Of a stretch of 64,000 nt of DNA, positions 17,472 to 62,796 are shown one piece after another; the stretch's first letter is position 1; the number at the start of each line of letters is the position of its first letter. Both the position numbers and the translations under genes were made by a program. The DNA is from Candidatus Nomurabacteria bacterium (GTDB lineage Bacteria > Patescibacteriota > Minisyncoccia > Phycocordibacterales > UBA5272), in NCBI GenBank assembly GCA_029288775.1, contig JARIGQ010000006.1, positions 64,120-128,119 of the forward strand, written 5' to 3'. A model generated the notes under the pieces. The model was not told the origin of the DNA. It was given only the letters and a program-made list of their open reading frames with translations, and ran no database searches.

Positions 17472-18533
17472 TCAGTCTTCGAGTGAAAGGATGAATTCGA
17501 CCATCTCCTGGTCACCACGGCAGCCCACGAGGAGTTGCTCCTTGGAGACCAGCTTGGTGAAGTCTCCTTCGTTGGGGATGGTTTTTCGCAGCTGGGTCCA
17601 GACGCGGGAGTAATTCCCCCACGAACCGTCGGGGTCGCCGTCCTCACGTGGGCGCACCGGGTGCTGCAGGGGAGACATGTGCCCATTCCCTTTCAGGTCT
17701 TGGGCCAGTTCGAGATCCTTCGCGAGTGCCCGGACGCCGTTATGGGTCAGATAGCTGGTCCGCGCGCATTTGCCGGCGGAGGCCCATGCGAGAACTCCTT
17801 CTTTCGGTTCCTCGGCACGGTCTTCCGGACGTATGTACGGAAGGTGCCATTGCCCGATTTGGAGTTCCGTGGGCTTGCTGTTCATCATCGCGTGAGCGAT
17901 GACGATGCCGAAGTCGTTGGCTTCAGGTTGCGCGTGTTCGCTGTTGCGGAGGCCGAAGAAGTTTCTCCAGTGCGTAGCAGTCACGATGACCGTGTGGAAC
18001 GAGTAGGGCTCGATCACGCGGTTGGCATGCTGCTTGTGGAGGCCTTGGTCCTGCTCGAACAGGAAGTGGGAGAGTCCGTACTTCCGGACGAGCTCGTCCA
18101 CCTGTTCGCACAACCATGCACCCTTGGCTGCCATGCCAGCTTTCTCGCTTGCTGCCAGGATTTCCTTGTGGCCGCCAGCCAGGTAGAACGCCTGGATGAC
18201 GGCGATGTCCCGGCCGACCAGCCAGTTGGCTACAGCCTTCTTCTGGTCGGAATCCGACAGGGATTCGCCGGCCTGCATCCCGGCCTTGTTGACCCCGAAC
18301 GAGTTGGGGACGTAAGGCCGTTCAAGCACGGCGATCAGCCGCTTGATCGTGGGCATGGCGCGCGAGCTTGCCGAGTTGCGCGAAAAGCGCGTGTGGGTGT
18401 TGAACTCTGCGAGGTAGGGTCGAGGAAACTCGACTTCCACCGAGCAGATTCGCGATCCGCGAAAAATGCTGTCGCAAATCATCTTTGCGGTGGCGCTTAC
18501 CTCGCGGTAAACGGACGGCGGGGTATAATCCAT
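17472..18533 (-). CDS. unknown 353-aa protein of the GC-rich deoxynucleotide island
   Basis: about 60% GC; AAGGAGAT SD 5 nt upstream; own terminator. The opposite-strand 345-aa ORF is an R/V/G-rich shadow. No TS, ThyX, radical-SAM or MTase motifs recognised. Confidence 0.5.
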   Translation of the reverse strand: MDYTPPSVYREVSATAKMICDSIFRGSRICSVEVEFPRPYLAEFNTHTRFSRNSASSRAMPTIKRLIAVLERPYVPNSFGVNKAGMQAGESLSDSDQKKAVANWLVGRDIAVIQAFYLAGGHKEILAASEKAGMAAKGAWLCEQVDELVRKYGLSHFLFEQDQGLHKQHANRVIEPYSFHTVIVTATHWRNFFGLRNSEHAQPEANDFGIVIAHAMMNSKPTELQIGQWHLPYIRPEDRAEEPKEGVLAWASAGKCARTSYLTHNGVRALAKDLELAQDLKGNGHMSPLQHPVRPREDGDPDGSWGNYSRVWTQLRKTIPNEGDFTKLVSKEQLLVGCRGDQEMVEFILSLED

Positions 18534-18738
18534 GAGATCTCCTTTTCCGTGATGGGGTGGAATGAGCTGTAACCAGCTTATCTAAATGTACAAGTTTGGA
18601 ATAGCTTTTACTAGATTGACAGAACGCGTGTTCTGTTCGTTTGTGGAGTTTCTTTCTTTTACATACACTCGGATAAAAGTTCTTTCTCTCAAGAAGGAAC
18701 ATCCTATTAACTATGCGCCTGCGGGCGAGGAGAGTGAC

Positions 18739-19437
18739 ATGGCCAAGGCTATTATTGCGATCGAAGGGTCTGACGGCGCCGGCAAGGAGACGCAGGCGGG
18801 ACTGCTTATGAAGTTCCTCCAGTCGCAGGGATATACCGTGGGGACGGAATCATTTCCCCGTTACAACAAATCGGTCGGCGGTATCTTTTTGTATGATGCC
18901 CTTAAGGGACCGGAGAAGGAGAAGTACGCCTTCTCGAAGCTTGATCCATATGACGCGAGCAAGCCCTACGCCATGGATCGTTCGGAGTCCCGCGGCATCA
19001 TCGAAGATCTCGTCGCGAAGCACGATGTGGTTGTCTTCGATCGTTACGTTGAGTCGAACTTGCTCCACCAAGGGGGCAAGCTCGCTACACCTGAAGAGCG
19101 TGTAGAATACGCGAATTGGTTGTTCCGGGAAGAATACGAAGGCAAGCGCGGTATCCCGCGCCCTGACTTCGTGATCTACCTCAAGATCCCGTTCTGGCTT
19201 TCGCGCGCCCGTGCGGAGCGGCGGTCGGCAAACGGCGGCCCCGCACTTGATGCGGTCGAGTCCGACATGGATTACGTGCGTAAGGGCCACGAAGGCGGCA
19301 TCTTCTATGCCGAGCATTTCGGTTGGGAAGTAGTGGAAGGCTTGGAGGACAAGCGCGAGCTCACCCCGGATGAAGTTCACCAGAAGGTGATCCGCCAGAT
19401 TACCCCTCGTCTTCTCGAAAAAGGGATCGAGATCTGA
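18739..19437 (+). CDS. thymidylate-kinase-like P-loop kinase (P-loop present, TREPGGT motif absent)
   Basis: IIAIEGSDGAGKETQ P-loop, DRYVESNLLHQGG (DRY/lid-like); GAGGAGAG SD before the ATG at 18739. Confidence 0.6.
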   Translation: MAKAIIAIEGSDGAGKETQAGLLMKFLQSQGYTVGTESFPRYNKSVGGIFLYDALKGPEKEKYAFSKLDPYDASKPYAMDRSESRGIIEDLVAKHDVVVFDRYVESNLLHQGGKLATPEERVEYANWLFREEYEGKRGIPRPDFVIYLKIPFWLSRARAERRSANGGPALDAVESDMDYVRKGHEGGIFYAEHFGWEVVEGLEDKRELTPDEVHQKVIRQITPRLLEKGIEI

Positions 19438-19557
19438 AGTAACACTATGGAAACCGGCCCACGGGGCCGGTTTTTTCTTTTCTCGACACATAAGGGAATG
19501 ATGTGATAGGGTGTCGTTAGTACATCCGTACTTTTTCTTTTGCGAAGGAGAAGATTC

Positions 19558-20127
19558 ATGAAGGGCAAGTTCATCGTCTTTGGCGGGGTGAAGTCCCCCT
19601 GGCCCACCATCGAGGTGGTTCAGGAACACGTTCGTTCGAGCGGTGTCGAAACCGTGATCACCAGAGAACCTGGAGGTACGCCCTTTGCGGAGAATATCCG
19701 CAAGCTCCTCCTGGAAGGTGATCATGGTGGCGATTACGGAATCGTGCGAAGCCTCACTCGTGCTGCGCGTATCGAACATGAGCGCAAGGTTGTGGAACCG
19801 GCGCTCGAGCGGGGAGAGCATGTGCTCTGCGATTCCACCGACTATACCAAGTTCCACGAATGGGACACGGTCGTTTCCGAGCAGAGCTTGATCCATTCAG
19901 GTTTCGATCGCGAATGGTTGGTTGGCAAACCGACAATGCTCATCCTGTTCACTCCCTCCGAGATGGATCCGCGGCTCAGGACCATCTTCAACAATGTGGG
20001 GTACACGATGAACACAGGATTCATTTCCTGGGAGACTCTTGTGTACTACGTGGATCCCGGCGACATCCATTCGGTGGAAACGATGTTGGAAGCCTTGAAG
20101 GACCATCTTGCTTTCGAAATCGCCTGA
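19558..20127 (+). CDS. thymidylate-kinase-like protein with degenerate P-loop (TREPGGT present)
   Basis: ITREPGGTPFAENIRKLL dTMP-binding motif but FGGVKSPWPT in place of the G-x-x-G-x-GK-S/T P-loop; AAGGAGAAG SD before the ATG at 19558. Confidence 0.5.
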   Translation: MKGKFIVFGGVKSPWPTIEVVQEHVRSSGVETVITREPGGTPFAENIRKLLLEGDHGGDYGIVRSLTRAARIEHERKVVEPALERGEHVLCDSTDYTKFHEWDTVVSEQSLIHSGFDREWLVGKPTMLILFTPSEMDPRLRTIFNNVGYTMNTGFISWETLVYYVDPGDIHSVETMLEALKDHLAFEIA

Positions 20128-21944: not shown

Positions 21945-22140
21945 ATGGCGATGACGGGAGTAATCACCCCTGAGCTTCGGGAAGAAAGTCGAAAGGCAAG
22001 TAGAACCCAGTGAATGAGGTCCAAGAAGGGAAACCGACGAGGACAAATCAAGGTGGTACCACGGGAATCTTTTGAAACTCGTCCTTGGAAAGCAATATCA
22101 AACATTGCTTCTCAAGGACGAGTTTTTATTTTTAATTACA
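21945..22140 (+). promoter_or_regulatory. T-box riboswitch leader with terminator, upstream of ileS
   Basis: AAUCAAGGUGGUACCACGGG (22046-22066) matches the T-box consensus AGGGUGGNACCGCG; followed by the terminator CTCGTCCTTGG...CCAAGGACGAG + T-run (22078-22140); promoter TTGCAC-16-TAGTAT at 21910-21937. Confidence 0.55.
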
Positions 22141-22145
22141 AACAT

Positions 22146-25100
22146 ATGAACGATACACCCAAATCAATAAACGAAAAGGAACTAGAAACGCTTGCGTTCT
22201 GGAAAGAACATGCGATTTTTGAAAAGTCGGTGGAAACGCCAGCCGGGGATACACCCAAAGGATCCTTTTCATTTTATGATGGTCCACCATTTGCAACAGG
22301 TACTCCGCATATGGGGCATATTTTGGCTGGAACAATTAAGGATGCAATTCCGCGGTACCAAACGATGAAAGGTAATTCCGTCCGCCGTGTATGGGGATGG
22401 GATTGCCATGGGCTTCCAATTGAAAATTTGATTGAAAAGAAGCTCGGTCTTCAGTCAAAGAAAGATATTGAAAGCTTCGGTATAGATAAGTTTAATCGTG
22501 ACGCGTTTGAGTCAGTGCTTCAATATGAAGAGGAATGGAAGAAGGCAATTCCTCGATTGGGTCGTTTTGTAGATATGGAGCATCCCTACAAGACGATGGA
22601 TTGGAGTTATACCGAAAGCGTATGGTGGTCATGGAAAACTTTGTATGAAAAGGGGCTTGCTTACGAAGGGAACAAAATGATGCATATTTGTCCTCGTTGC
22701 GAGACACCGCTTGCACAATCTGAAGTAGGACTTGAATATCATGATGTTACTGACCTTTCGGTGACGGCAAAATTTGAGCTAGTGGATGAACCGGGAACAT
22801 ATGTACTTGCGTGGACAACAACGCCGTGGACTCTTCCGGGGAATACGGCACTTGCTCTAAAAGAGGATGCTCACTATGTAAAGGTTTCCATTGAAGGAAT
22901 GGGAGGGCTGTATGTGCTCGCTCAAGAAAGAATAGAAGAGGTGCTTAAAGAAATGAAGTACGAAGTGCGGGATACTTTTGTTGGCAGTTCACTTATCGGT
23001 AAATCATATAAGCCTGTATTCCCTTATTTTATAGACAAGAATATTGAAAACAAGGAACAGATCTGGAAGATTTGGCATGCAGAATTCATTACTCTTGATA
23101 CTGGAACTGGTATCGCCCATGAAGCTCCTGCTTTTGGTGCCGAAGATATGGATCTTGCAAAAGCACACACCATTCCCGTGATCAAGCATGTGAAGATGGA
23201 CGGAACGTTTACTGAGGATGTGACAGATTTTGCTGGCATGAAAGTGAAGGTTAAGGACGATACGCAATCTGCTGATATTGAGATCATTAAATATTTGGCA
23301 CACAACGGTTTGCTTTTCGAAAAGCATAAAATCGTCCACTCCTATCCACTCTGCTGGCGATGCAAGACTCCGCTTCTTAATTACGCGACATCGTCTTGGT
23401 TTGTGGATGTGCCAAAGATGAAGGAAAAGCTTTTAAATGAAAATCAAAAAATTGGTTGGACTCCAGACCATATTCGCGAGGGGCGATTTGGGAGATGGCT
23501 TGAAGGCGCACGGGAATGGGCCGTATCACGCTCGCGTTATTGGGGTGCGCCGCTTCCTGTGTGGAAGTCCGCTTCAGGTGACGTGAAAGTCATTGGCAGC
23601 TTAAAGGAGCTTGCGACCCTTTCTACAAAAAAGTCGAAGAATACTTATTTTGCAATTCGACACGGTGAAGCAAAGAGTAATATCGATAATATGCTCGATA
23701 GTTATGGTGATAAGAATAATCATCTGACGGATTTGGGTAAGGAACGCGCACGACATGCGGGACATTTTGCAAAAGAACAGGGAATAGATCTTATTATTCA
23801 TTCACCACTTCTACGTACGAGGGAAACGGCAGGCATCATTCATGAAGCGTGCGGCGCCTCCACAGTGGAAGATGTTCGACTGCAGGAATTCCAAGGAGGA
23901 ATCTTTTCTGGAAAACCTATTCACGAGCTCCGTTCATTTCAGCATTCCTCGACTTTCACCTTTGACTCCAAAGTGGAAAATGGAGAATCATATCGCGAAG
24001 TTATGCATCGTGTCATGTCACTTCTTCATGAGTGCGAAACAAAGTACAAAGGAAAGAAGATTCTTTTTGTGACTCATGGTTCTCCACTCTGGATGCTTCA
24101 AGCGGGAGCAGAATTAAAGACCGATGAGGAGCTTTATGGGGAAATTGCTTCCCATGAAGATACGTCTCCTGCCCACGCGCACGTCATTCCGATTAAGCCG
24201 CTTCTTGTGCCTCGAGATGAAACTGGTGCAATTAACCTTCATCGCCCGTATATTGATGAAGTTGAGTTAGAGATAGAAGGGAAGCTGTATAGGCGTATTG
24301 GAGATGTCTTTGATTGCTGGTATGAATCAGGCTCCATGCCGTTTGCGCAACTCCATTACCCCTTTGAGAATAAAGAGGTGTTTGATAAAAATTTCCCGGC
24401 AGACTTTATTGCTGAAGGGTTGGATCAGACCCGTGGGTGGTTCTATTCGCTGATTAATCTAGGGGTGGGCCTGTTTGATAAGGCTCCTTATAAGCATGTC
24501 ATTGTAAATGGTTTGGTGATGGCTGAAACTGGGCAAAAGCTCTCTAAAAGTGAAAAAAATTATACCGATCCCATGGAGCTTGTGGCGCGCTATGGAGCGG
24601 ATGCGGTGCGTTATGCTTTGCTTTCTTCACCAGTTGTAAAAGGGGAGAATGTTCAGTTTGGTGATAAAACAGTAGAAGATGTATATAAGAAGGTTATTCA
24701 GCGTTTGGAAAATGTCGTGTCTCTTTATGAAATGAATAAAGATACCTCCTACGAAGCAAACCCTGCTTCTCGTAATGTGCTTGATAGATGGATCGTCTCT
24801 CGTGTACATGAGCTCGTAGCAAGGGCAACTAAAGGATATGATACGTATACGCTTGATGAAGCAACCTACCCGCTTGATCAGTTCGTAGATGATTTGTCTG
24901 TATGGTATGTACGTCGCAGTCGAGATCGTCTTAAGGGGGATACCGGGGAAGAGGACAAAAGACTCTCTTATGAAACACTCACGTATGTATTGATCACGGT
25001 TGCTAAAGTGATTGCTCCCGTTATGCCATTTTTAGCGGAACGTTTGTATCAAACGGTGTGTACAGCTCGAGAGTCGGTGCACCTTGAAAGCTGGCCAGAG

Positions 25101-25574
25101 AGCGGAGTAATAGAGGAAGATGTTCTTACAGAAATGAGAAAAGTGCGGGAGGTTGTAACTCAAGCGCTTGCCAAGCGTACCGAAAGTAAGATTGCTGTCC
25201 GTCAACCGCTCGCGAAACTTACTGTTAAAGAAACAATCCATAAGGAGTATGAAGCAATTCTTCTTGATGAACTTAATGTTAAAGAGCTTGCAATCGATTC
25301 TTCGCTTGCCGAGCCATGTGTACTCGACACTGCACTTACTGAGACGCTCAAGCAAGAAGGCGACGTACGTAATCTTATGCGTGCAATTCAGGACGCTCGC
25401 AAGGAAAAGGGTCTTACCCCTAAGGATACAGTGACGCTGAGTGTTTCGTATACTGTACCAGATGCATTTAGGGACATGCTGATGGCTACTTGTCGTGTAG
25501 TTGCAATTGAAGAAGGTGAAGGTCCGTACGGAGCGGAAACATCTCAAGGAAGAATAACCTTCGATCTTCGTTAA
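22146..25574 (+). CDS. ileS: isoleucine--tRNA ligase, eukaryote-like type 2, with an inserted histidine-phosphatase (PGAM-like) domain
   Basis: FYDGPPFATGTPHMGHILAGTIKD is nearly identical to the human IARS motif; WTTTPWTLPGNTALAL editing domain; KLSKS; about 190-aa insert (RHGEAKSN...LLRTRETA...VTHGSPLW) between the catalytic core and ...GDVFDCWYESGS. Confidence 0.9.
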   Translation: MNDTPKSINEKELETLAFWKEHAIFEKSVETPAGDTPKGSFSFYDGPPFATGTPHMGHILAGTIKDAIPRYQTMKGNSVRRVWGWDCHGLPIENLIEKKLGLQSKKDIESFGIDKFNRDAFESVLQYEEEWKKAIPRLGRFVDMEHPYKTMDWSYTESVWWSWKTLYEKGLAYEGNKMMHICPRCETPLAQSEVGLEYHDVTDLSVTAKFELVDEPGTYVLAWTTTPWTLPGNTALALKEDAHYVKVSIEGMGGLYVLAQERIEEVLKEMKYEVRDTFVGSSLIGKSYKPVFPYFIDKNIENKEQIWKIWHAEFITLDTGTGIAHEAPAFGAEDMDLAKAHTIPVIKHVKMDGTFTEDVTDFAGMKVKVKDDTQSADIEIIKYLAHNGLLFEKHKIVHSYPLCWRCKTPLLNYATSSWFVDVPKMKEKLLNENQKIGWTPDHIREGRFGRWLEGAREWAVSRSRYWGAPLPVWKSASGDVKVIGSLKELATLSTKKSKNTYFAIRHGEAKSNIDNMLDSYGDKNNHLTDLGKERARHAGHFAKEQGIDLIIHSPLLRTRETAGIIHEACGASTVEDVRLQEFQGGIFSGKPIHELRSFQHSSTFTFDSKVENGESYREVMHRVMSLLHECETKYKGKKILFVTHGSPLWMLQAGAELKTDEELYGEIASHEDTSPAHAHVIPIKPLLVPRDETGAINLHRPYIDEVELEIEGKLYRRIGDVFDCWYESGSMPFAQLHYPFENKEVFDKNFPADFIAEGLDQTRGWFYSLINLGVGLFDKAPYKHVIVNGLVMAETGQKLSKSEKNYTDPMELVARYGADAVRYALLSSPVVKGENVQFGDKTVEDVYKKVIQRLENVVSLYEMNKDTSYEANPASRNVLDRWIVSRVHELVARATKGYDTYTLDEATYPLDQFVDDLSVWYVRRSRDRLKGDTGEEDKRLSYETLTYVLITVAKVIAPVMPFLAERLYQTVCTARESVHLESWPESGVIEEDVLTEMRKVREVVTQALAKRTESKIAVRQPLAKLTVKETIHKEYEAILLDELNVKELAIDSSLAEPCVLDTALTETLKQEGDVRNLMRAIQDARKEKGLTPKDTVTLSVSYTVPDAFRDMLMATCRVVAIEEGEGPYGAETSQGRITFDLR

Positions 25575-29129: not shown

Positions 29130-30596
29130 ATGGATAAGCGTCCTTTTTTCATCACTACTGCTATCGCATACGCAAATGGTGCTCCGCATGTCGGGCATGC
29201 TTTTGAGTTTCTTTTGGCTGACGCAATCGCTCGCTATAAGCGTTTGGAAGGAAACGACGTTTATTTCATTACAGGTATGGATGAGCATGGACAGAAAATA
29301 GAACAGAAAGCCAAAGAACAAGGACTTGCTGTACAATCTTTTGTAGATGGATATGCGGAGGAGTTTAAGTCGCTTGATCGTGAATTGGGTATTTCGTATG
29401 ACTTTTTCGTACGCACAAGCGATATGGAGAAGCATTATAAGGGTGCCCAAGCATTATGGAAAAAGATTGCCGAAAAGGGGGATTTGGAAAAACGTTCCTA
29501 CAAAGCGCTCTATTGCGTAGGGTGTGAGGAGTTCAAGACCGAAAAAGATTTGGATGCGGAAGGACGTTGTCCACTTCATTTGAAAGTGCCGGAAGTAGTA
29601 GAGGAGGAAAATTATTTCTTCAAGCTTTCTCAGTACACTGAAATAATTAAGGATAAGATATTAACTGATGAAGTAAAGATTTATCCGCAGTCGAGAAAGA
29701 ACGAGATTTTAGCACTCCTTGAGCGGGGACTTGAGGATGTCTCTTTTTCTCGACCTACGACAAAAGTAGCCTGGGGGATTCCAGTTCCTGGTGACGATTC
29801 GCAGGTCATGTACGTATGGTGTGATGCGCTTGCAAACTATATTACTGCAATCGGCTACGGCACGGATACGTTTCGCGAAGATTTGTGGAGTAATGCCACG
29901 CATGTCATTGGTAAGGATATCCTTCGTTTTCATGCTGCTATTTGGCCAGGTATGCTTCTTTCAGCCGGACTTGCACTTCCTAAAAATATTATTGTTCACG
30001 GACATATCACCTCGGGCGGTCAGAAAATGAGTAAAACATTAGGTAATAGTATTGATCCAAAAGATGTTATTGAGCTCTTTAAACCTGTTGCAGGTGAGCT
30101 CGCTGGAGAAGCCGCGCGTTTTGTTTTACTTCATGAGGTCCCAAGTTTTAATGATGGTGATATTACGCTTGATTCCATCAAAAGCGCATACACAGGCCAT
30201 TTAGTAAACGGCCTTGGGAATCTTACGAGTCGTATTATGAAATTATGCGAAGTTCATAAAGATAAACTGACAGCACTCCCGTTTGAATTCAATGATAATT
30301 ATCCACATGAAGGGGATATTTGGGAATCTTTCACTGATTTTGATCCTAATCAAGCCCTCCATCTTGTAATGGATTATACAAAGCTTTTGGATGAAACTAT
30401 TCAGAAAGACGAAGCTTTCAAAGTAATTAAGCAAGACGAAGCGCGCGGATTAGAACTCATCAATGAACATAAGAAAAGATTAATGATGATTGCAACCATG
30501 CTGTATCCTTTTATTCCAAAAACTTCTCAAATTATTCTTGATTGTATTCGCGAAAACAAAATGCCTGAGAAGCCGCTGTTTGCACGGCTTCCATAG
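29130..30596 (+). CDS. metG: methionine--tRNA ligase (minimal core form)
   Basis: FFITTAIAYANGAPHVGHAFE HIGH region, CPLH zinc knuckle, KMSKTLGN. Confidence 0.9.
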   Translation: MDKRPFFITTAIAYANGAPHVGHAFEFLLADAIARYKRLEGNDVYFITGMDEHGQKIEQKAKEQGLAVQSFVDGYAEEFKSLDRELGISYDFFVRTSDMEKHYKGAQALWKKIAEKGDLEKRSYKALYCVGCEEFKTEKDLDAEGRCPLHLKVPEVVEEENYFFKLSQYTEIIKDKILTDEVKIYPQSRKNEILALLERGLEDVSFSRPTTKVAWGIPVPGDDSQVMYVWCDALANYITAIGYGTDTFREDLWSNATHVIGKDILRFHAAIWPGMLLSAGLALPKNIIVHGHITSGGQKMSKTLGNSIDPKDVIELFKPVAGELAGEAARFVLLHEVPSFNDGDITLDSIKSAYTGHLVNGLGNLTSRIMKLCEVHKDKLTALPFEFNDNYPHEGDIWESFTDFDPNQALHLVMDYTKLLDETIQKDEAFKVIKQDEARGLELINEHKKRLMMIATMLYPFIPKTSQIILDCIRENKMPEKPLFARLP

Positions 30597-40185: not shown

Positions 40186-40299
40186 CGCTTAACTCCTTAT
40201 CTTAATCTGGAAGCACTCTAGTTCTTTTGATGGCGATTGTCAAAAGCTGCCTTTCGATTTCTCCACAAATGAAAAAACTCCCGCGGGAGTTTTTTCATT

Positions 40300-40686
40300 T
40301 GTGGAGATGGGCGGAATCGAACCGCCGTGTATATCGGTATGAAGCATGCATCTACTGTGCGTAGTTTGCTTTGTATGCCTGTATGCCATAGAAGCAAACG
40401 AAAGCGACATACAGGGTGCATGGATTAGTTCATTGCGCACCTCATGCGGAGTGCGCAACTACATCTGCTGTCATTATGCCGTACTCCTTCCCGCAGATGC
40501 GAAAGGGGACGACACCAGGTCGGCGTAAATTACGCGAACGCTGGAACAAGTCCATTCACGTAAGGTGATGGAATTGCCGCTGCAGTTTTGTTTGCAACAT
40601 GGATGGCAGAATGTTAACGAGTACTCTGCCTATCTCGGCATAGCACATACGTCATGGTCGATATATCAAAGCCAAAGATCATCCCC
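40300..40686 (-). ncRNA. ssrA: tmRNA (ssrA)
   Basis: minus strand 5'-GGGGAUGAUCUUUGGCUUUGA..UCGACC and 3'-GGCGGUUCGAUUCCGCCCAUCUCCA with a G3:U70 acceptor pair; putative tag ORF GCA AAC AAA ...GCG UUC GCG UAA (ANKTAAAIPSPYVNGLVPAFA); starts 2 nt after the smpB stop. Confidence 0.75.
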
Positions 40687-41155: not shown

Positions 41156-43066
41156 ATGGCTAAAGACACTAAGAAACAGCAAGGTAAATCAGGCTCTGGA
41201 AATAAATTTTCAGCGGTTAAAAAGGTGGGTGGCTTTTCACAACAGCTCATAGGAACGCTTATTATCTTTCTTTTTTTGGCGTGGGGGTATTCGCTCGTTG
41301 AAGACAAGGCTGCTACAGAAACGATTCCACTTTCGGAATTCGCTTCTCTGGTGACGAGGAACCAGATACGTTCGATACGTGTTCAAGGAGACACGCTTTT
41401 AGCTACTAAGACAGATAATTCTTTGGTATCGAGCAAGAAGGAGACCGGAGCTTCGGTTTTGGATACGCTTCGCAATTATGGTGTGAGTACTTCAACCCTT
41501 GCTTCTACTACTATTACAGTAGAGAGCGTGCGTGGTCTCTCATTCTGGGGATCTATTATTCCAATTGCACTCCCCATCCTTTTCTTCGGTTTTATGATTT
41601 GGTGGTTGGCCCGCGGTATCAAGGGGGCAAATATGCAGGCGCTTTCATTTGGGCAATCCCGCGCCAAGATGATTCATCCAGATGATGGGAAGCAAAAAGT
41701 TACATTCAAAGATGTAGCAGGTGCAAAGGAAGCCAAAGAAGAACTTATGGAAATTGTGGAATTTCTACGCAGTCCCAAGAAGTTTTTGGATATCGGTGCG
41801 GTGATCCCCAAAGGTGTACTTCTTATGGGTGCACCAGGAACGGGAAAAACCATGCTTGCGCGTGCTGTTGCAGGAGAAGCAGGTGTGCCATTCTTTCACT
41901 TGTCAGGCTCAGAGTTTGAAGAAATGTTCGTGGGAGTGGGGGCATCGCGTGTCCGAGATCTCTTTGATATGGCAAAGAAGTCTGCGCCGTCTATTATTTT
42001 TATTGATGAAATTGATGCCGTTGGACGCGCGCGTTCGCCTTCTATGGGGGGTCAGGGTGAAGCCCGTGAGCAAACGCTCAACCAAATTCTTGTAGAGATG
42101 GATGGATTTGAACAGACTGAGAACGTGATCGTCATGGCTGCAACTAACAGACCTGATGTGCTTGATCAAGCTCTTCTTCGTCCAGGGCGATTTGACCGTC
42201 GAGTAACACTTGATTTACCTGATCGTAATGACCGTGAATCAATTCTTCAGGTTCACATCAAGGCAAAGCCGCTTGCTGAAGATGTTAATCTTCGCGTCAT
42301 TGCTGAACGTACTCCAGGATTTTCAGGGGCTGATCTGTATTCACTGATGAATGAAGGAGCAATCTTGGCGGCACGTGAAGGAAGGAAGTCGGTTGCACAG
42401 TATGATCTCATTCGTGCAATAGAAAAGGTCATGCTCGGCCCTGAACGCAAAAGTCATGTGCTTTCACCGGAAGAGAAGAAGCTTACTGCATACCATGAAG
42501 CCGGACATGCCTTGGTTGCGTCGGTATTACCAAATGCGGACCCTGTACATAAGATTTCCATTATTGCTCGTGGACGTGCCGGAGGATACACGCTCAAGCT
42601 CCCGCTTGATGATAGGCGGCTGATGAGCAAAGGTGCATTTTTGGATGATATCGCTATGTCGCTTGGAGGATATGTTGCGGAGAAGGAAGTCTTTGGGGAT
42701 ATTACGACCGGCCCATCAAATGATCTTCAGGTGGCGACAGGTTTTGCTCGTGATATGGTGACTAAATACGGTATGTCTTCGCTCGGGCCGATTGCGCTTG
42801 TGGGAGATGGGCGCGCGTTCTTTGGAGGAGGGTTGTATGGAAAGGAATACAGCGAATCATTTGGTCAAAAGATTGATGAGGAAGTAAAGCGTATCATGGA
42901 CGAAGCGTGGGAGCGTGCGCGAGTGATTATCACGGAAAAACGTGCGGCACTCGATGCAATTGCAGAAGAGCTTATCAAGGTGGAAAATATCGAACGCGAA
43001 GAATTTGAAAAGATTCTTATCATGCATGGCATTAAGCCAAAACGAAAAGAAGAAGTGTTTGTGTAA
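41156..43066 (+). CDS. ftsH: ATP-dependent zinc metalloprotease FtsH
   Basis: [33 protein letters not shown] zinc motif. Confidence 0.9.
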
Positions 43067-43107
43067 AAAGAAAGGCCGCCGTGAGGCGGTCTTTTGCTGC
43101 GGCGGGC

Positions 43108-43335
43108 TTACGTCGCAGCGTTCACGAAGCCGATGGCCTGGACAGTGGTCAACGACCGGGACTGCATGCTCCAGTTGCATGCCTGCGGCAGATTGGCAGC
43201 AGGGTTGTGCCAGTGGCCGGCACAGGAGTTCTGGGTGATCTTCCCTTTCGAGGGACAGCGGTCGTTGTTGATCTTCTTGTGGCAGTCGCTGTGGCCAGGG
43301 ACGCAGTTGCATTCCCGGAGTTTTCTTTCGTCCAT
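43108..43335 (-). CDS. GC-rich cysteine/histidine-rich small protein
   Basis: 75 aa with 7 Cys and 5 His (CNCVPGHSDCHKK...CPSKG...CAGHWHNP...C), about 60% GC, AGAGGAGT SD. Confidence 0.35.
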   Translation of the reverse strand: MDERKLRECNCVPGHSDCHKKINNDRCPSKGKITQNSCAGHWHNPAANLPQACNWSMQSRSLTTVQAIGFVNAAT

Positions 43336-43461
43336 CTGGGGACTCCTCTACTGTTAGTTTAAGAACAGAGGTTTATGATACCTCCATTTTCTATCCTACG
43401 ACTTTGAAAGTTTTCTGTAAAGATGTCATACGCACTCTTTTTTGTTATAGTTTGTAGCAAT

Positions 43462-43534
43462 GCATCCATAGCTCAGTTGGTAGAGCCGTCGTCTTATACA
43501 CGACTGGTCCCTGGTTCGAGTCCAGGTGGATGCA
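43462..43534 (+). tRNA. tRNA-Ile with anticodon UAU (AUA-decoding)
   Basis: cloverleaf folds cleanly: acceptor GCATCCA/TGGATGC, D GCTC/GAGC, anticodon stem GTCGT/ACGAC with loop cTTATAc, T-loop TTCGAGT; CCA not encoded. Confidence 0.75.
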
Positions 43535-43561
43535 CAAAAGTACGTTTGCTATACTGTGTGC

Positions 43562-43927
43562 ATGTTCAATATCTGGCCCTATCTTCTTCGCCTTGCGGTT
43601 GCATTGGAATTTATTTATCCGCACGGCATTGCTCTCATGCAGGGGGCTAAGAAAGTGAAGCTTGCTGTGTTTGCGTGTGTGAATGAGTATATTCCAACGA
43701 CTATTGCTTTTACTCTGTGGCATTCTTTCTTTGTTATCTTGGGAATACTTATTCTTATTTGGCCGCGTCCTATTTTGCCACTTATTATTGCACTCATTAT
43801 TCTCTCTTCTGAGCTTTATATTAATTTTGCACAGCATAGCTATACGGTCATGAATATGCTCCTCTTTATTTTGCTTCTCGTGACACTCGCGCTCATCATC
43901 TATCACTCTCGTCCGCAGTTCAGGTAA
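43562..43927 (+). CDS. membrane protein, unknown function
   Basis: hydrophobic 121-aa ORF (Met at 43562). Confidence 0.4.
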   Translation: MFNIWPYLLRLAVALEFIYPHGIALMQGAKKVKLAVFACVNEYIPTTIAFTLWHSFFVILGILILIWPRPILPLIIALIILSSELYINFAQHSYTVMNMLLFILLLVTLALIIYHSRPQFR

Positions 43928-43928
43928 C

Positions 43929-46091
43929 ATGCGCCTGAATGATCCCATTTCCTCATTAGGTCGCATCAACGAAACGCATGCTGATGCTTTCAAGCGTTTA
44001 AAGATTGCCACACTCCGTGATCTTCTTTTTCACTTTCCTGTTCGCTATGCGGATTCGCGTGAAGTGACTGCGGCGACGAATCTCGAAAAAGGCAAACCTG
44101 TTACCGTCTATGGCATCATGGAGAAGGTGCAAGTACGTAGAAGTTTTAAGGGTCATATTCCTATGACGGAGGCGCGCATTGCGGATCAAACAGGGGGAGT
44201 GCGTGCGGTGTGGTTCAACCAGGCGTACATCGGCAAAATGTATCCGGATGGAACGCGCGTAAAAGTAAGCGGGATAGTACATGAAGATAAAAAGGGGTTT
44301 TCCCTTTCCAATCCATCGATTGAGCGGGCGCCGGATATCATTCCAGATGCAGACAATTCGCTCTTCCAAGAGCATGTAGCCCCTGAATTTCTTATTCCCG
44401 TGTATCGGGAAACTAAAGGGATCACGAGCAATTATCTTTATACGCTTATCAAGAAGGCTGTAGCAGGGGGCATTCTAGACACTGTTGAGGACCCCATACC
44501 GCCGCACATCTCAAAGAAGCTCAGCTTGCCCGAGCTCAAGGATGCACTTCTTTTTATTCATTTTCCAAAAGAAGAAAAATGGACAATAGCTGCTCGTAAA
44601 CGTTTCGCTTTTGAGGAAATTTTTTATATGCAGCTCAAGCAGCAAAAGGAACGCATGCTTGCCAGAAACTCGCTTGCGTATACAGTGACTGCGTCTGACG
44701 AAGACGTAGGAGATTTTATGGATTCTTTTTCTTTTGTTCCAACACAGGCGCAAAAAGATGCAGTTGCTTCTATTCTTAAAGATCTTAAGGCGAACTTCCC
44801 CATGGGACGATTGTTGGAAGGGGATGTGGGAAGCGGTAAGACGTTTGTTGGAGCTACGGCGGCATATGCAACGCTTCTTACCGAAAGTAGTAAAGGCGGT
44901 CAATCACTTCAAGTGGCCTATATGGCGCCTACGGAAATCCTTGCAAAGCAGCATTTTGAAAGCTTCATTCAGTATTTTGAAGGCACAGGAGCAGAAATCG
45001 GTTTGCTTACAGGAAGCGGGTGTAAAAAATTCCCAAGTAAGTCTGATCCGTCAGGGTATACGGATATTTCACGAACGCAACTTATCAAGTGGCTTGAAGA
45101 GGGTCGTGTTTCTATTGTTGTTGGTACCCATGCGCTTATTCAAAAGTCTGTGACCTTTGCACATCTTGGACTCGTGATTATCGACGAGCAGCATCGGTTC
45201 GGTGTAAAACAACGTAAAGCCCTTGCAGAGAAGAAGGGTCGCACACGACGCGAACTTCCTCATCTTTTGTCTATGACAGCAACGCCTATTCCGCGTACGC
45301 TTGCGCTTACTATGTTTGGGGATTTGGATCTTACTGTGATTGATGAAATGCCAAAGGAACGCAAAAAAATTATCACTGAAGTCGTTGCTACGTATAAACG
45401 CAAAGACGTATATGAACATATGCGAAATGAGTTAGCGGCTGGTCGTCAGGCTTATGTCATTTGTCCTCGCATTGACGAGCAGGACGAAGAAGAGCAACAA
45501 AAGAGAATGCTAAAGAGCGTGAAAGAAGAGGCTAAGCGGTTAGGTGAAGAAATCTTCCCTGAGTTTGTTGTTGATATCCTGCACAGCAAAATGAAGAAAG
45601 AGGAGAAGGAAGAAGTGATGCAGGATTTTTTGGCAAAGAAATCCAATATTTTGGTTGCTACTTCAGTGGTTGAAGTGGGGGTGAATGTTCCGAATGCTAC
45701 CGTGATGATTATTGAGCATGCGGATCGGTTCGGTTTGGCTCAGCTCCATCAGCTTCGCGGTCGGGTAGGAAGAAGTCATCACCAGTCATATTGTTACTTA
45801 TTTACCGAAAGCGATGGTGAAGCTACCATGCGCCGTCTCAAGCATCTTGTTGAAGCAAAGAATGGTTTTGAATTGGCTGAACTTGATATGCAATCACGCG
45901 GCATTGGAACACTTATGGATGGTAAGCAGTGGGGGATGAGCGATTTGGCAATGGAAGCAATCAAAAACCCTAAGCTTGTAGAAATTGCTCGTGCTGAAGC
46001 CAAAGAATTGATTGAACATGATCCCGATTTGGAAAGTTATCCAGATTTGGCAGAACTGGTACTCAAACGCGAGACGGTGCATATGGAGTAG
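43929..46091 (+). CDS. recG: ATP-dependent DNA helicase RecG
   Basis: wedge/OB N-terminus, GDVGSGKT Walker A, DEQHRFG, QLRGRVGR motifs. Confidence 0.85.
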   Translation: MRLNDPISSLGRINETHADAFKRLKIATLRDLLFHFPVRYADSREVTAATNLEKGKPVTVYGIMEKVQVRRSFKGHIPMTEARIADQTGGVRAVWFNQAYIGKMYPDGTRVKVSGIVHEDKKGFSLSNPSIERAPDIIPDADNSLFQEHVAPEFLIPVYRETKGITSNYLYTLIKKAVAGGILDTVEDPIPPHISKKLSLPELKDALLFIHFPKEEKWTIAARKRFAFEEIFYMQLKQQKERMLARNSLAYTVTASDEDVGDFMDSFSFVPTQAQKDAVASILKDLKANFPMGRLLEGDVGSGKTFVGATAAYATLLTESSKGGQSLQVAYMAPTEILAKQHFESFIQYFEGTGAEIGLLTGSGCKKFPSKSDPSGYTDISRTQLIKWLEEGRVSIVVGTHALIQKSVTFAHLGLVIIDEQHRFGVKQRKALAEKKGRTRRELPHLLSMTATPIPRTLALTMFGDLDLTVIDEMPKERKKIITEVVATYKRKDVYEHMRNELAAGRQAYVICPRIDEQDEEEQQKRMLKSVKEEAKRLGEEIFPEFVVDILHSKMKKEEKEEVMQDFLAKKSNILVATSVVEVGVNVPNATVMIIEHADRFGLAQLHQLRGRVGRSHHQSYCYLFTESDGEATMRRLKHLVEAKNGFELAELDMQSRGIGTLMDGKQWGMSDLAMEAIKNPKLVEIARAEAKELIEHDPDLESYPDLAELVLKRETVHME

Positions 46092-59853: not shown

Positions 59854-60044
59854 TAGGGGTCTTCGCGAGCTTCAGGGTAACTTGTAGCAAACGGAGAATT
59901 TCAGTAGTAAATTGTCAAAGCAAGAGCAGCTGCGGAAGATAGATCAGAAAACTCTCAAATGTTTCTGATTACAAACGTCTTCTGATGACGCTGCAAACAT
60001 TACACACATTGTGCATTTTTGTTTTTCTTTTGTCACACTCTATT

Positions 60045-61592
<1,548 letters not shown>

Positions 61593-61820
61593 TGAAATCG
61601 GTCAACATACCTATTTAATAGGGTGTATGATTCTTGTCGAACTATTGTTTTCAATAGAGGAATTGATAGTGATCCTTAACACTATCCGCGTTACAGCGAA
61701 AGGTAACACAAGTCGCGCAAGCGCTAGAGTGTGACAAAAGAAAGATGTGAAATCTCAATGTGTGTAATGTAATGAAATAGCCCCGATCGCTACGCGATCG
61801 GGGCTTCTCCGTTTTCGGAT

Positions 61821-62234
61821 TCATGCCTGCTTCTTCCAGGGTGGGGGAGGGGCAATTGATTCCCCGGTGCGATCAGCTGGTTGCTTTTTGAAGAGTAGGT
61901 TGTTATTGCGCAACCGCTGGCCGTTTCCGCGAAAGAGCATCCATACCCGGCTTGGCGGTTTGTACCACAAGAGGCAGCCACAACTTTCCGCCAGACGTTT
62001 CTCGATCACAACTTCGGCGACCGCCCATTTGAGATCCAGTGTCGCTTCCTCTTTTGTTTGGAGGATGTGTGAACCCTGGGTGAATGGGAGATTGTGTGCC
62101 GAAAGGGTGTGGGCCATCGCTTGAAGCTGATCCACGTTGCCGGCAACTGCCCAGCTTGAGAGGCGACGCCTTTTCTGCTGTTCGGTTTCAGTGCGTTCCA
62201 CGGAGTATCTCCTTTTAATGAACGGATGTCTCAT
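61821..62234 (-). CDS. GC-rich hypothetical protein inside the 16S-tRNA-Ile spacer
   Basis: 137 aa, about 55% GC, terminator at 61788-61815. Confidence 0.35.
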   Translation of the reverse strand: MRHPFIKRRYSVERTETEQQKRRRLSSWAVAGNVDQLQAMAHTLSAHNLPFTQGSHILQTKEEATLDLKWAVAEVVIEKRLAESCGCLLWYKPPSRVWMLFRGNGQRLRNNNLLFKKQPADRTGESIAPPPPWKKQA

Positions 62235-62325
62235 TTTCCCTTATGGAGTAAGCTTTTGCAAGGTATTGACTTTTATATAAAAACGTGATATATTATATTA
62301 GTACCCATAACGGAGGAGTTCCTTC

Positions 62326-62568
62326 ATGAACCACCATTTTTCGAAAACGATGACGATCGGTGGAACCGACCGCCATCGCATGAACGCGATGGACTTCGGT
62401 CGCCCGGTGCCGGCCGGCAAGAAGCAGGCCGATTGGTCTGGGGTCATCATTGCAGGAGGGGTCATCCTCTTCCTCGTGGTCCTGGCTCTGCCGACGGTTT
62501 CGGAATCGTTCCGGCAACATACCGGCATCACGGGCTGGGTGGAATCCCTGCGGAATCTCTTCCGCTAA
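62326..62568 (+). CDS. GC-rich small membrane protein inside the rRNA spacer
   Basis: 80 aa with one TM; ACGGAGGAG SD 8 nt before the ATG; promoter TTGACT...; terminator at 62588-62622. Confidence 0.4.
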   Translation: MNHHFSKTMTIGGTDRHRMNAMDFGRPVPAGKKQADWSGVIIAGGVILFLVVLALPTVSESFRQHTGITGWVESLRNLFR

Positions 62569-62670
62569 TCCATCCCGGACCTTCAACCAAGCCTGCCTGC
62601 GCTTACGCGCGGCAGGCTTTTTCATTTGGTATTTTTGTGGTAGTATTGTGCTTACGTTTCAAATAATCAT

Positions 62671-62743
62671 GCGCGAATAGCTCAGCTGGTAGAGCACTCG
62701 ACTGATACTCGAGCGGTCCCAAGTTCGAATCTTGGTTCGCGCA
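62671..62743 (+). tRNA. tRNA-Ile (anticodon GAU)
   Basis: acceptor GCGCGAA/TTCGCGC, anticodon loop cTGATAc, T-loop TTCGAAT; usual 16S-23S spacer tRNA. Confidence 0.85.
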
Positions 62744-62796
62744 CATGGAAACAAAAAGACGGGCAACTAATTGAGCGCGTCTTTTTGTTTTTACTT

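Follow-up and report, generated by a model that had tools for sequence, protein, structure and literature searches.

Which tRNA reads the isoleucine codon AUA in a bacterium whose chromosome encodes a tRNA-Ile with the anticodon UAU, and how widely is this arrangement shared among its relatives? The usual bacterial route to AUA is the conversion by TilS of C34 in tRNA-Ile2(CAU) into lysidine. TilS and lysidine are textbook "universal, essential" features of bacteria and proposed drug targets. Here we discuss a tRNA-Ile(UAU) gene in a 64,000-nucleotide stretch of a Candidatus Nomurabacteria genome (hereafter the window), together with 80 related loci. Our preferred reading, which we hold to be probable, is that the gene specifies a functional minor isoleucine tRNA that would read AUA directly through its genomic UAU anticodon, would be charged by a type-2 isoleucyl-tRNA synthetase (IleRS) and would be vertically inherited.

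ARAGORN calls two tRNAs in the window, tRNA-Ile(tat) and tRNA-Ile(GAU), and sets the first at 43462-43535 of the forward strand with the anticodon (tat) at position 34. Rfam places a full-length match to RF00005 (model positions 1-71 of 71) on the same strand at 43462-43534, with a score of 68.5 bits (gathering threshold 29) and an E-value of 8.1e-13. Both programs agree on the anticodon TAT; the anticodon frame is unambiguous, and the proposal that first drew attention to the locus, namely that a tRNA-Ile whose UAU anticodon is encoded in the genome lies at these coordinates, is borne out. The minimum free energy fold is a standard cloverleaf (-27.5 kcal/mol, z=-2.8), with an acceptor stem of 7 bp (GCATCCA/TGGATGC), a D arm of 4 bp (GCTC/GAGC), an anticodon stem of 5 bp (GTCGT/ACGAC) closing the loop C-T-T-A-T-A-C, a variable loop of 5 nt and a T arm of 5 bp (CCTGG/CCAGG). 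The discriminator is A73, and CCA is not encoded. A promoter-like site ends 10 nt upstream of the 5′ end of the gene, and boxes of the same TGnTAnACT type also lie upstream of many window genes; judging from this consensus match, the tRNA probably has an extended -10 promoter to itself. The features on which the following discussion draws are collected in Table 1.

Table 1. Positions in the window of the tRNA-Ile(UAU) gene and of the features discussed with it.
Feature	Position	Strand	Basis
IleRS, type 2, 1186 aa; HMGH at aa 99, KLSKS at aa 842	22014..25574	+	Pfam tRNA-synt_1, Anticodon_1, DUF5915; PDB ranking
His_Phos_1 insertion in IleRS, about 200 aa, aa 534-738, in-frame	23613..24227	+	Pfam PF00300, 4.9e-30
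IleRS codons for Gln1126/Arg1129/Leu1134, corresponding to Gln996/Arg999/Leu1004 of S. cerevisiae IleRS (N34 site)	25389..25415	+	phmmer to 8wnd_A 972-1015
MetRS, for the CAU tRNAs that have to outcompete the U34 tRNA at AUG	29130..30596	+	Pfam tRNA-synt_1g, 1.8e-93
ftsH, conserved upstream neighbour, anchors the tRNA synteny	41156..43066	+	Pfam AAA and Peptidase_M41
Promoter-like site ATGTCA-17-TATAGT with TG extension	43423..43451	+	Consensus scan
tRNA-Ile, anticodon U34 A35 U36, A73, no CCA	43462..43534	+	ARAGORN, Rfam RF00005, MFE cloverleaf, 72-sequence alignment
recG, conserved downstream neighbour	43929..46091	+	Pfam RecG_wedge/DEAD/Helicase_C
tRNA-Ile(GAU), major isoacceptor for AUU/AUC	62671..62743	+	ARAGORN; Rfam 73.1 bits

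The surroundings of the gene are those of a chromosome. The window also holds 16S rRNA, tRNA-Ile(GAU), tmRNA, smpB, and genes for IF3, L20, ArgRS, MetRS, RecO, NusG, L11, S6, SSB and SecDF, a core gene content that marks it as core chromosome and not as an island. Next to the tRNA, the preliminary description had seen a GC-rich, Cys-rich ORF, a characterisation that does not hold: ORF 43526-43927(+) has a GC content of 41.5%, lower than the mean of the window, and its 133 aa include 3 Cys. The product, a small hydrophobic protein that resembles a multi-pass membrane protein and matches no Pfam family, is kept in the seven nearest relatives at 47-78% identity, often several kb away from the tRNA. 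The true start of the ORF is probably an ATG near aa 13, so that it would not overlap the tRNA. Two further ORFs adjoining or overlapping the tRNA, 42857-43312(-) and 43445-44011(-), were rejected as antisense artefacts, their apparent conservation stemming from ftsH, the tRNA and the membrane-protein gene on the opposite strand. Elsewhere in the window, GC content is raised between 17400 and 20000; the 18-20 kb bin has 55.5%, where other bins have about 44%. This region carries long overlapping ORFs on both strands with no Pfam hits (17472-18533(-), 17535-18572(+) and 18850-19896(-)), as well as a thymidylate-kinase-like ORF with a weak match (18586-19437(+)).

Relatives were collected by a scan for FtsH through one genome per GTDB species, which yielded 80 loci with FtsH identities of 62-80%; these GTDB representatives do not include the window genome, and 80% is the top FtsH identity. 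The closest relatives by IleRS and FtsH are metagenome-assembled genomes (MAGs) labelled Candidatus Nomurabacteria, Parcubacteria, Paceibacterota, Yonathbacteria, Taylorbacteria, Kaiserbacteria, Zambryskibacteria and similar, and Candidatus Nomurabacteria is placed in the Patescibacteria group, Parcubacteria group, of the NCBI taxonomy. The host belongs to the Parcubacteria/Paceibacteria group of the CPR.

In 71 of the 80 loci, ftsH is followed, according to ARAGORN, by a complete tRNA-Ile(TAT), which lies 11-8206 nt away and on either strand. The nine loci without a call all have less than 1.6 kb of sequence past ftsH; in three of them (L004, L005 and L008) the contig breaks off within a copy of the tRNA, the CTTATAC loop of which can still be recognised, and the remaining six contigs extend 897 nt or less past the gene. 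The UAU tRNA is thus the conserved norm in Parcubacteria/Paceibacteria and not an exception. A genomic UAU anticodon had been described at the outset as rare; this stands for cultured bacteria, with 17 complete genomes on record (PMC8450103), but not for the present lineage, where 74 of 80 related genomes carry the gene and the rest are truncated. Of the 72 genomes formed by the 71 related loci and the window, 53 have recG and 42 have smpB within 4 kb of the tRNA. Clustering of the neighbours in these 72 tRNA-bearing genomes returned only ftsH, recG and smpB as recurrent, with no tRNA-modification gene consistently adjacent. Three relatives also carry a tRNA-Ser with the anticodon ACT (A34) near a normal tRNA-Ser(GCT) (L072:14871-14960, L073:17237-17326 and L080:14396-14485); anticodons starting with A are very rare among bacteria outside Arg.

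The 72 gene copies, which represent 64 distinct sequences, were aligned on the cloverleaf. C32, U33, U34, A35, U36, A37 and A73 are invariant in all 72, and position 38 varies, with C in 60 copies and U in the other 12. Standard pairs fill 99.6% of the pair cells, and 17 of the 21 stem pairs show changes on both sides, that is, compensatory changes. The covariation score of 0.70 compares with 0.17 for shuffled alignments, none of 500 of which reached it, and with at most 0.14 when the pairing partners were slid. An invariant loop on covarying stems indicates a functional tRNA whose anticodon has been kept as UAU through deep divergence, and the conserved anticodon loop together with the compensatory stem changes marks the gene as being under purifying selection. 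A poorly scoring pseudo-tRNA, which would have undone the initial reading of the locus, is not what is found, given the 68.5 bits in Rfam and the pairing maintained over 64 distinct homologues.

The same comparison bears on the origin of the gene. Phages often carry tRNA-Ile(UAU), and a tmRNA gene, a common integration site, lies 2.8 kb upstream; the tRNA could accordingly be a mobile or horizontally acquired gene, phage-borne or inserted beside tmRNA. Against such an origin, dozens of species share the order smpB-tmRNA-ftsH-tRNA-recG, the flanks of the tRNA contain no integrase or phage genes, the local GC content is typical of the window, and the tRNA stems co-vary along with host divergence. 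The synteny effectively refutes acquisition from a mobile element, which we reject as vanishingly improbable; vertical inheritance at a fixed smpB-tmRNA-ftsH-tRNA-recG site throughout the clade would instead account for the distribution. The tmRNA itself (40299-40686(-), beside smpB) scores 92 bits in Rfam and has no ARAGORN call in the window, whereas ARAGORN does call a tmRNA at the same position in most relatives; in the Rfam alignment the window copy has a long insertion in the tag region.

What AUA means in these genomes can be read from its use. The codon accounts for 11.7 per 1000 codons and 17% of isoleucine codons in 62 window ORFs (17,488 codons). Over the long ORFs of 61 related loci and the window, values run from 5.1 to 56.2 per 1000 around a clade median of 18.6, and AUA is present in all 81 ftsH genes; in a relative of 58.7% GC (L065), ftsH contains 16 AUA against 5 AUU. 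When the nine AUA sites of the window IleRS are compared with 119 homologues, they mainly face isoleucine (52%) and valine (25%). The AUA sites of FtsH (81 genes) face isoleucine in 57%, valine in 18% and leucine in 12% of cases, a profile indistinguishable from that of AUU and AUC. AUA supplies 249 of 1118 codons at the 14 FtsH columns that are at least 95% isoleucine, and none at the seven invariant methionine columns. AUA is therefore used heavily and read as isoleucine.

These data also speak to the identity of the tRNA. ARAGORN's isotype name rests on the anticodon alone, and the gene might in principle be charged with a different amino acid, serve a reassigned AUA or be a pseudo-tRNA. 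We consider any of these extremely unlikely: AUA aligns with isoleucine, valine and leucine as AUU and AUC do and never falls at invariant methionine columns, and a pseudo-tRNA is excluded by score and covariation. The elements by which E. coli IleRS recognises its tRNA are said to include A73, U12-A23 and C4-G69, as reportedly found by Nureki and colleagues in 1994. On this list, which is that of the E. coli system, the tRNA presents A73, U12-A23, C4-G69, A35, U36 and A37; within the clade, U12-A23 is invariant and C4-G69 occurs in 57 of the 64 distinct sequences, so that the E. coli-type elements are conserved and argue for isoleucine.

An isoleucine tRNA with U34 calls for a synthetase that accepts it, and the only IleRS of the window is a type-2 enzyme, with a eukaryote/archaea-like C-terminus and without the zinc-binding domain. 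Among type-2 structures in the PDB it matches P. megaterium IleRS2 (8c8u) at 5e-211 and the T. thermophilus enzyme (1ile) at 3e-201, and the yeast, Candida and human cytoplasmic enzymes match at about 1e-200; type-1 matches are weaker (S. aureus, 1ffy, 1e-92; other type-1 chains about 1e-87 to 1e-74). Its C-terminus can be aligned with residues 909-980 of 8c8u, which lie in ARD3, and with residues 972-1015 of S. cerevisiae IleRS, so that the enzyme combines the ARD2/ARD3 C-terminus of type 2 with a type-2-like catalytic domain; the INS subdomain of about 80 aa is seemingly absent. The coexistence of the tRNA with a eukaryote-like type-2 IleRS, already suggested in the preliminary description, is upheld by this ranking of type 2 far over type 1.

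The alignment also identifies candidate readers of the anticodon. Gln1126 and Arg1129, the counterparts of the yeast residues at the N34 site, are invariant in all 120 of the best IleRS homologues, and Leu1134 is conserved in 115 of the 120. In the yeast enzyme, Arg999 forms a hydrogen bond with a carbonyl common to G34, I34, U34 and pseudouridine-34; C34 lacks that acceptor, and type-2 IleRS thereby takes tRNA-Ile and rejects tRNA-Met (Chen et al., PMC11685878). Taken together with this mechanism, the conserved Arg/Gln reader would give the window's IleRS the known structural means to accept both GAU and UAU without lysidine, and U34 would be recognised by Arg1129. The type of the enzyme is by itself no predictor of UAU use, since about half of bacteria combine type-2 IleRS with TilS (bioRxiv 10.64898/2026.02.03.703510). 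The solution of the Mycoplasma mobile type, in which a type-1 IleRS has exchanged a Trp of its zinc-binding domain for Arg or Lys, does not apply to this type-2 enzyme.

A further peculiarity of this IleRS is its histidine-phosphatase insertion, a His_Phos_1 (branch 1) domain that replaces residues 474-485 of P. megaterium IleRS2 (PDB 8c8u) and sits within the catalytic body, about 100 residues before KLSKS. It is present in all 120 best IleRS homologues (63-79% identity, Parcubacteria MAGs), with the catalytic residues RHG...R...E...HG at least 98% conserved; its nearest PDB match is the phosphatase PhoE (1ebb, 1e-9). Our literature search found no paper on a phosphatase domain in IleRS, and the insertion may be more novel than the UAU tRNA itself.

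Whether the canonical route persists beside the UAU tRNA is the remaining part of the question. A Pfam scan found no PF01171/TilS domain in any ORF of the 64-kb window, and ARAGORN found no tRNA with the anticodon CAT either there or among the 80 related loci. A phmmer search with E. coli TilS (NC_000913) against ORFs of at least 70 aa from the window and the 80 loci, 1.145 Mb in all, gave a best E-value of 0.36. In other bacteria, tilS often adjoins ftsH, a neighbourhood that the sequence searched includes. These negative results cover about 64 kb of the window genome and about 20 kb per relative (1.08 Mb of related loci), so that tilS could lie elsewhere, and the local absence is weak negative evidence for genome-wide loss. 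Double systems do exist, and one could suppose that, as in Lactobacillus casei (PMC3575796) or Cyanothece, tilS and tRNA-Ile2(CAU) are encoded elsewhere in the genome and the UAU tRNA is a supplementary decoder. We think this unlikely, given that the UAU tRNA occurs in every relative with enough sequence and that U34 is fixed down to an FtsH identity of 62%; universal retention and a fixed U34 fit an indispensable gene better than a spare one. Heavy use of AUA is in itself compatible with either arrangement, as TilS can also sustain it (39 per 1000 in Borrelia; PMC12514573). From the universal retention and the invariance of the UAU gene we infer that TilS has been lost and that AUA is decoded mainly or solely by the UAU tRNA.

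Direct decoding by a vertically inherited UAU tRNA would then proceed as follows. The genomic U34-A35-U36 anticodon would read AUA directly, in place of a lysidine made by TilS on tRNA-Ile2(CAU). The tRNA would be charged by the type-2 IleRS, the C-terminal Arg1129 of which is predicted to form a hydrogen bond with the carbonyl shared by G34 and U34 and to reject C34. Misreading of AUG might be avoided by competition with tRNA-Met and possibly by an adaptation of the ribosome or a modification of U34, as has been proposed for Mycoplasma mobile. The window encodes no U34-modifying enzyme.

The window 16S rRNA departs at several positions from that of E. coli and from the Rfam consensus. Its decoding region (16S positions 1395-1412, at about 61462-61482, and position 1491) has U at the highly conserved C1400, U for A1396, and A1409-U1491 replacing a C-G pair; the 530-loop region has A for C526, whereas G530, C1054, A1492 and A1493 are retained. 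In the ribosome, C1400 stacks on the wobble base of the P-site tRNA. The 80 related loci contain no 16S sequence. A link between these changes in the window 16S and decoding by U34 is pure speculation.

Other observations concern the rRNA gene and the start of translation. The 3′ end of the 16S rRNA (61575-61592) reads ...GGAUUAAUUCAAUG, where the bacterial consensus is GGAUCACCUCCUU, and consequently contains no anti-Shine-Dalgarno sequence. Shine-Dalgarno-like 4-mers lie upstream of 5 of 42 ATG starts, under the background of 16%, and an extended -10-like box (TGnTAnACT, GGTATACT) ends about 6-10 nt before the ATG of many window genes, a spacing that suggests mostly leaderless mRNAs. In the region 60042-62744, an insertion of 57 nt lies close to the 5′ end of the 16S gene. 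The spacer of about 1.08 kb between 16S and tRNA-Ile(GAU) holds only unannotated minus-strand ORFs, and no 23S rRNA start was found in the 1.25 kb after this tRNA.

The wider proposal, that the whole Paceibacteria/Parcubacteria radiation, with its thousands of species, has dropped lysidine and TilS and rewired its AUN box around a vertically inherited UAU tRNA, is one that we advance tentatively, rating its chances at somewhat below even. Such a clade-wide loss may have been accompanied by unusually heavy AUA use even in GC-rich genomes, by a type-2 IleRS whose histidine-phosphatase insertion is peculiar to the clade and apparently catalytic, and by changes in the 16S decoding region (U1400, absence of the anti-Shine-Dalgarno sequence). 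If the proposal is true, what has been called a rare exception would rank among the commonest means of decoding AUA in nature, and it might involve a new modification of U34 or a ribosomal device that prevents the misreading of AUG. The interest of the UAU tRNA lies in its breadth, an entire large radiation, and not in a new mechanism. A UAU anticodon fixed across a very large uncultivated clade would alter the view of how common this alternative is, and it would offer dozens of natural variants for studying how a U34 tRNA avoids AUG. For annotation and estimates of completeness, it would mean that a CPR genome should not be expected to carry tRNA-Ile2 or TilS.

Known bacterial cases of tRNA-Ile(UAU) are few: a tRNAscan-SE 2.0 survey of 2021 counted 17 complete genomes (PMC8450103), 19 species are listed elsewhere (PMC4013482), and bacterial UAU tRNAs were still called "rare cases" in 2026 (bioRxiv 10.64898/2026.02.03.703510). 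In the literature searched we found no paper linking CPR/Patescibacteria with lysidine or TilS, and nothing relevant on Parcubacteria IleRS or on CPR anticodon or tRNA genes.

The closest parallel is with Bifidobacterium and Neorickettsia, which have no tilS, a tRNA-Ile(UAU) and a eukaryote-type IleRS (Taniguchi et al., 2013, PMC3575796). They share with the present system the UAU anticodon and a type-2 IleRS without the zinc-binding domain (PMC3575796, PMC8450103). In contrast to these genera, the arrangement described here belongs to a very large uncultivated radiation, occupies a fixed syntenic site and comes with a histidine-phosphatase insertion in IleRS, and the absence of tilS refers to the window and the 80 loci. 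Mycoplasma mobile has a tRNA-Ile2(UAU) with an unmodified U34, a type-1 IleRS with Arg865 and a ribosome that rejects AUG (PMC3575796). The likeness here is in the TilS-independent reading of AUA by U34 and in the same unsolved problem of U-G wobble on AUG; the M. mobile enzyme is of type 1, with a change from Trp to Arg in its zinc-binding domain, whereas the present enzyme is of type 2 and would read N34 with a different domain.

The eukaryotic cytoplasmic tRNA-Ile(UAU) has the same UAU anticodon and is served by the same class of IleRS, with the same Gln/Arg/Leu readers of N34 (PMC11685878). It has an intron and Pus1-dependent pseudouridines at positions 34 and 36, of neither of which the window tRNA gives any sign, and its partner is IAU in place of GAU. 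With the canonical tRNA-Ile2(CAU) and TilS the present tRNA shares its task, the reading of AUA as isoleucine; unlike it, position 34 is T in 72 of 72 genes, and the sequence examined contains no TilS homologue. The clade consensus is 76% identical to E. coli ileX (Ile2) and 64% to ileV (Ile1), a likeness that fits, weakly, an origin of the UAU tRNA by a C34-to-U change. [quoted passage not shown] The tRNA-Ile(UAU) of the Parcubacteria/Paceibacteria would work like the known TilS-independent decoders, and what is new is its placement in a huge uncultivated clade.
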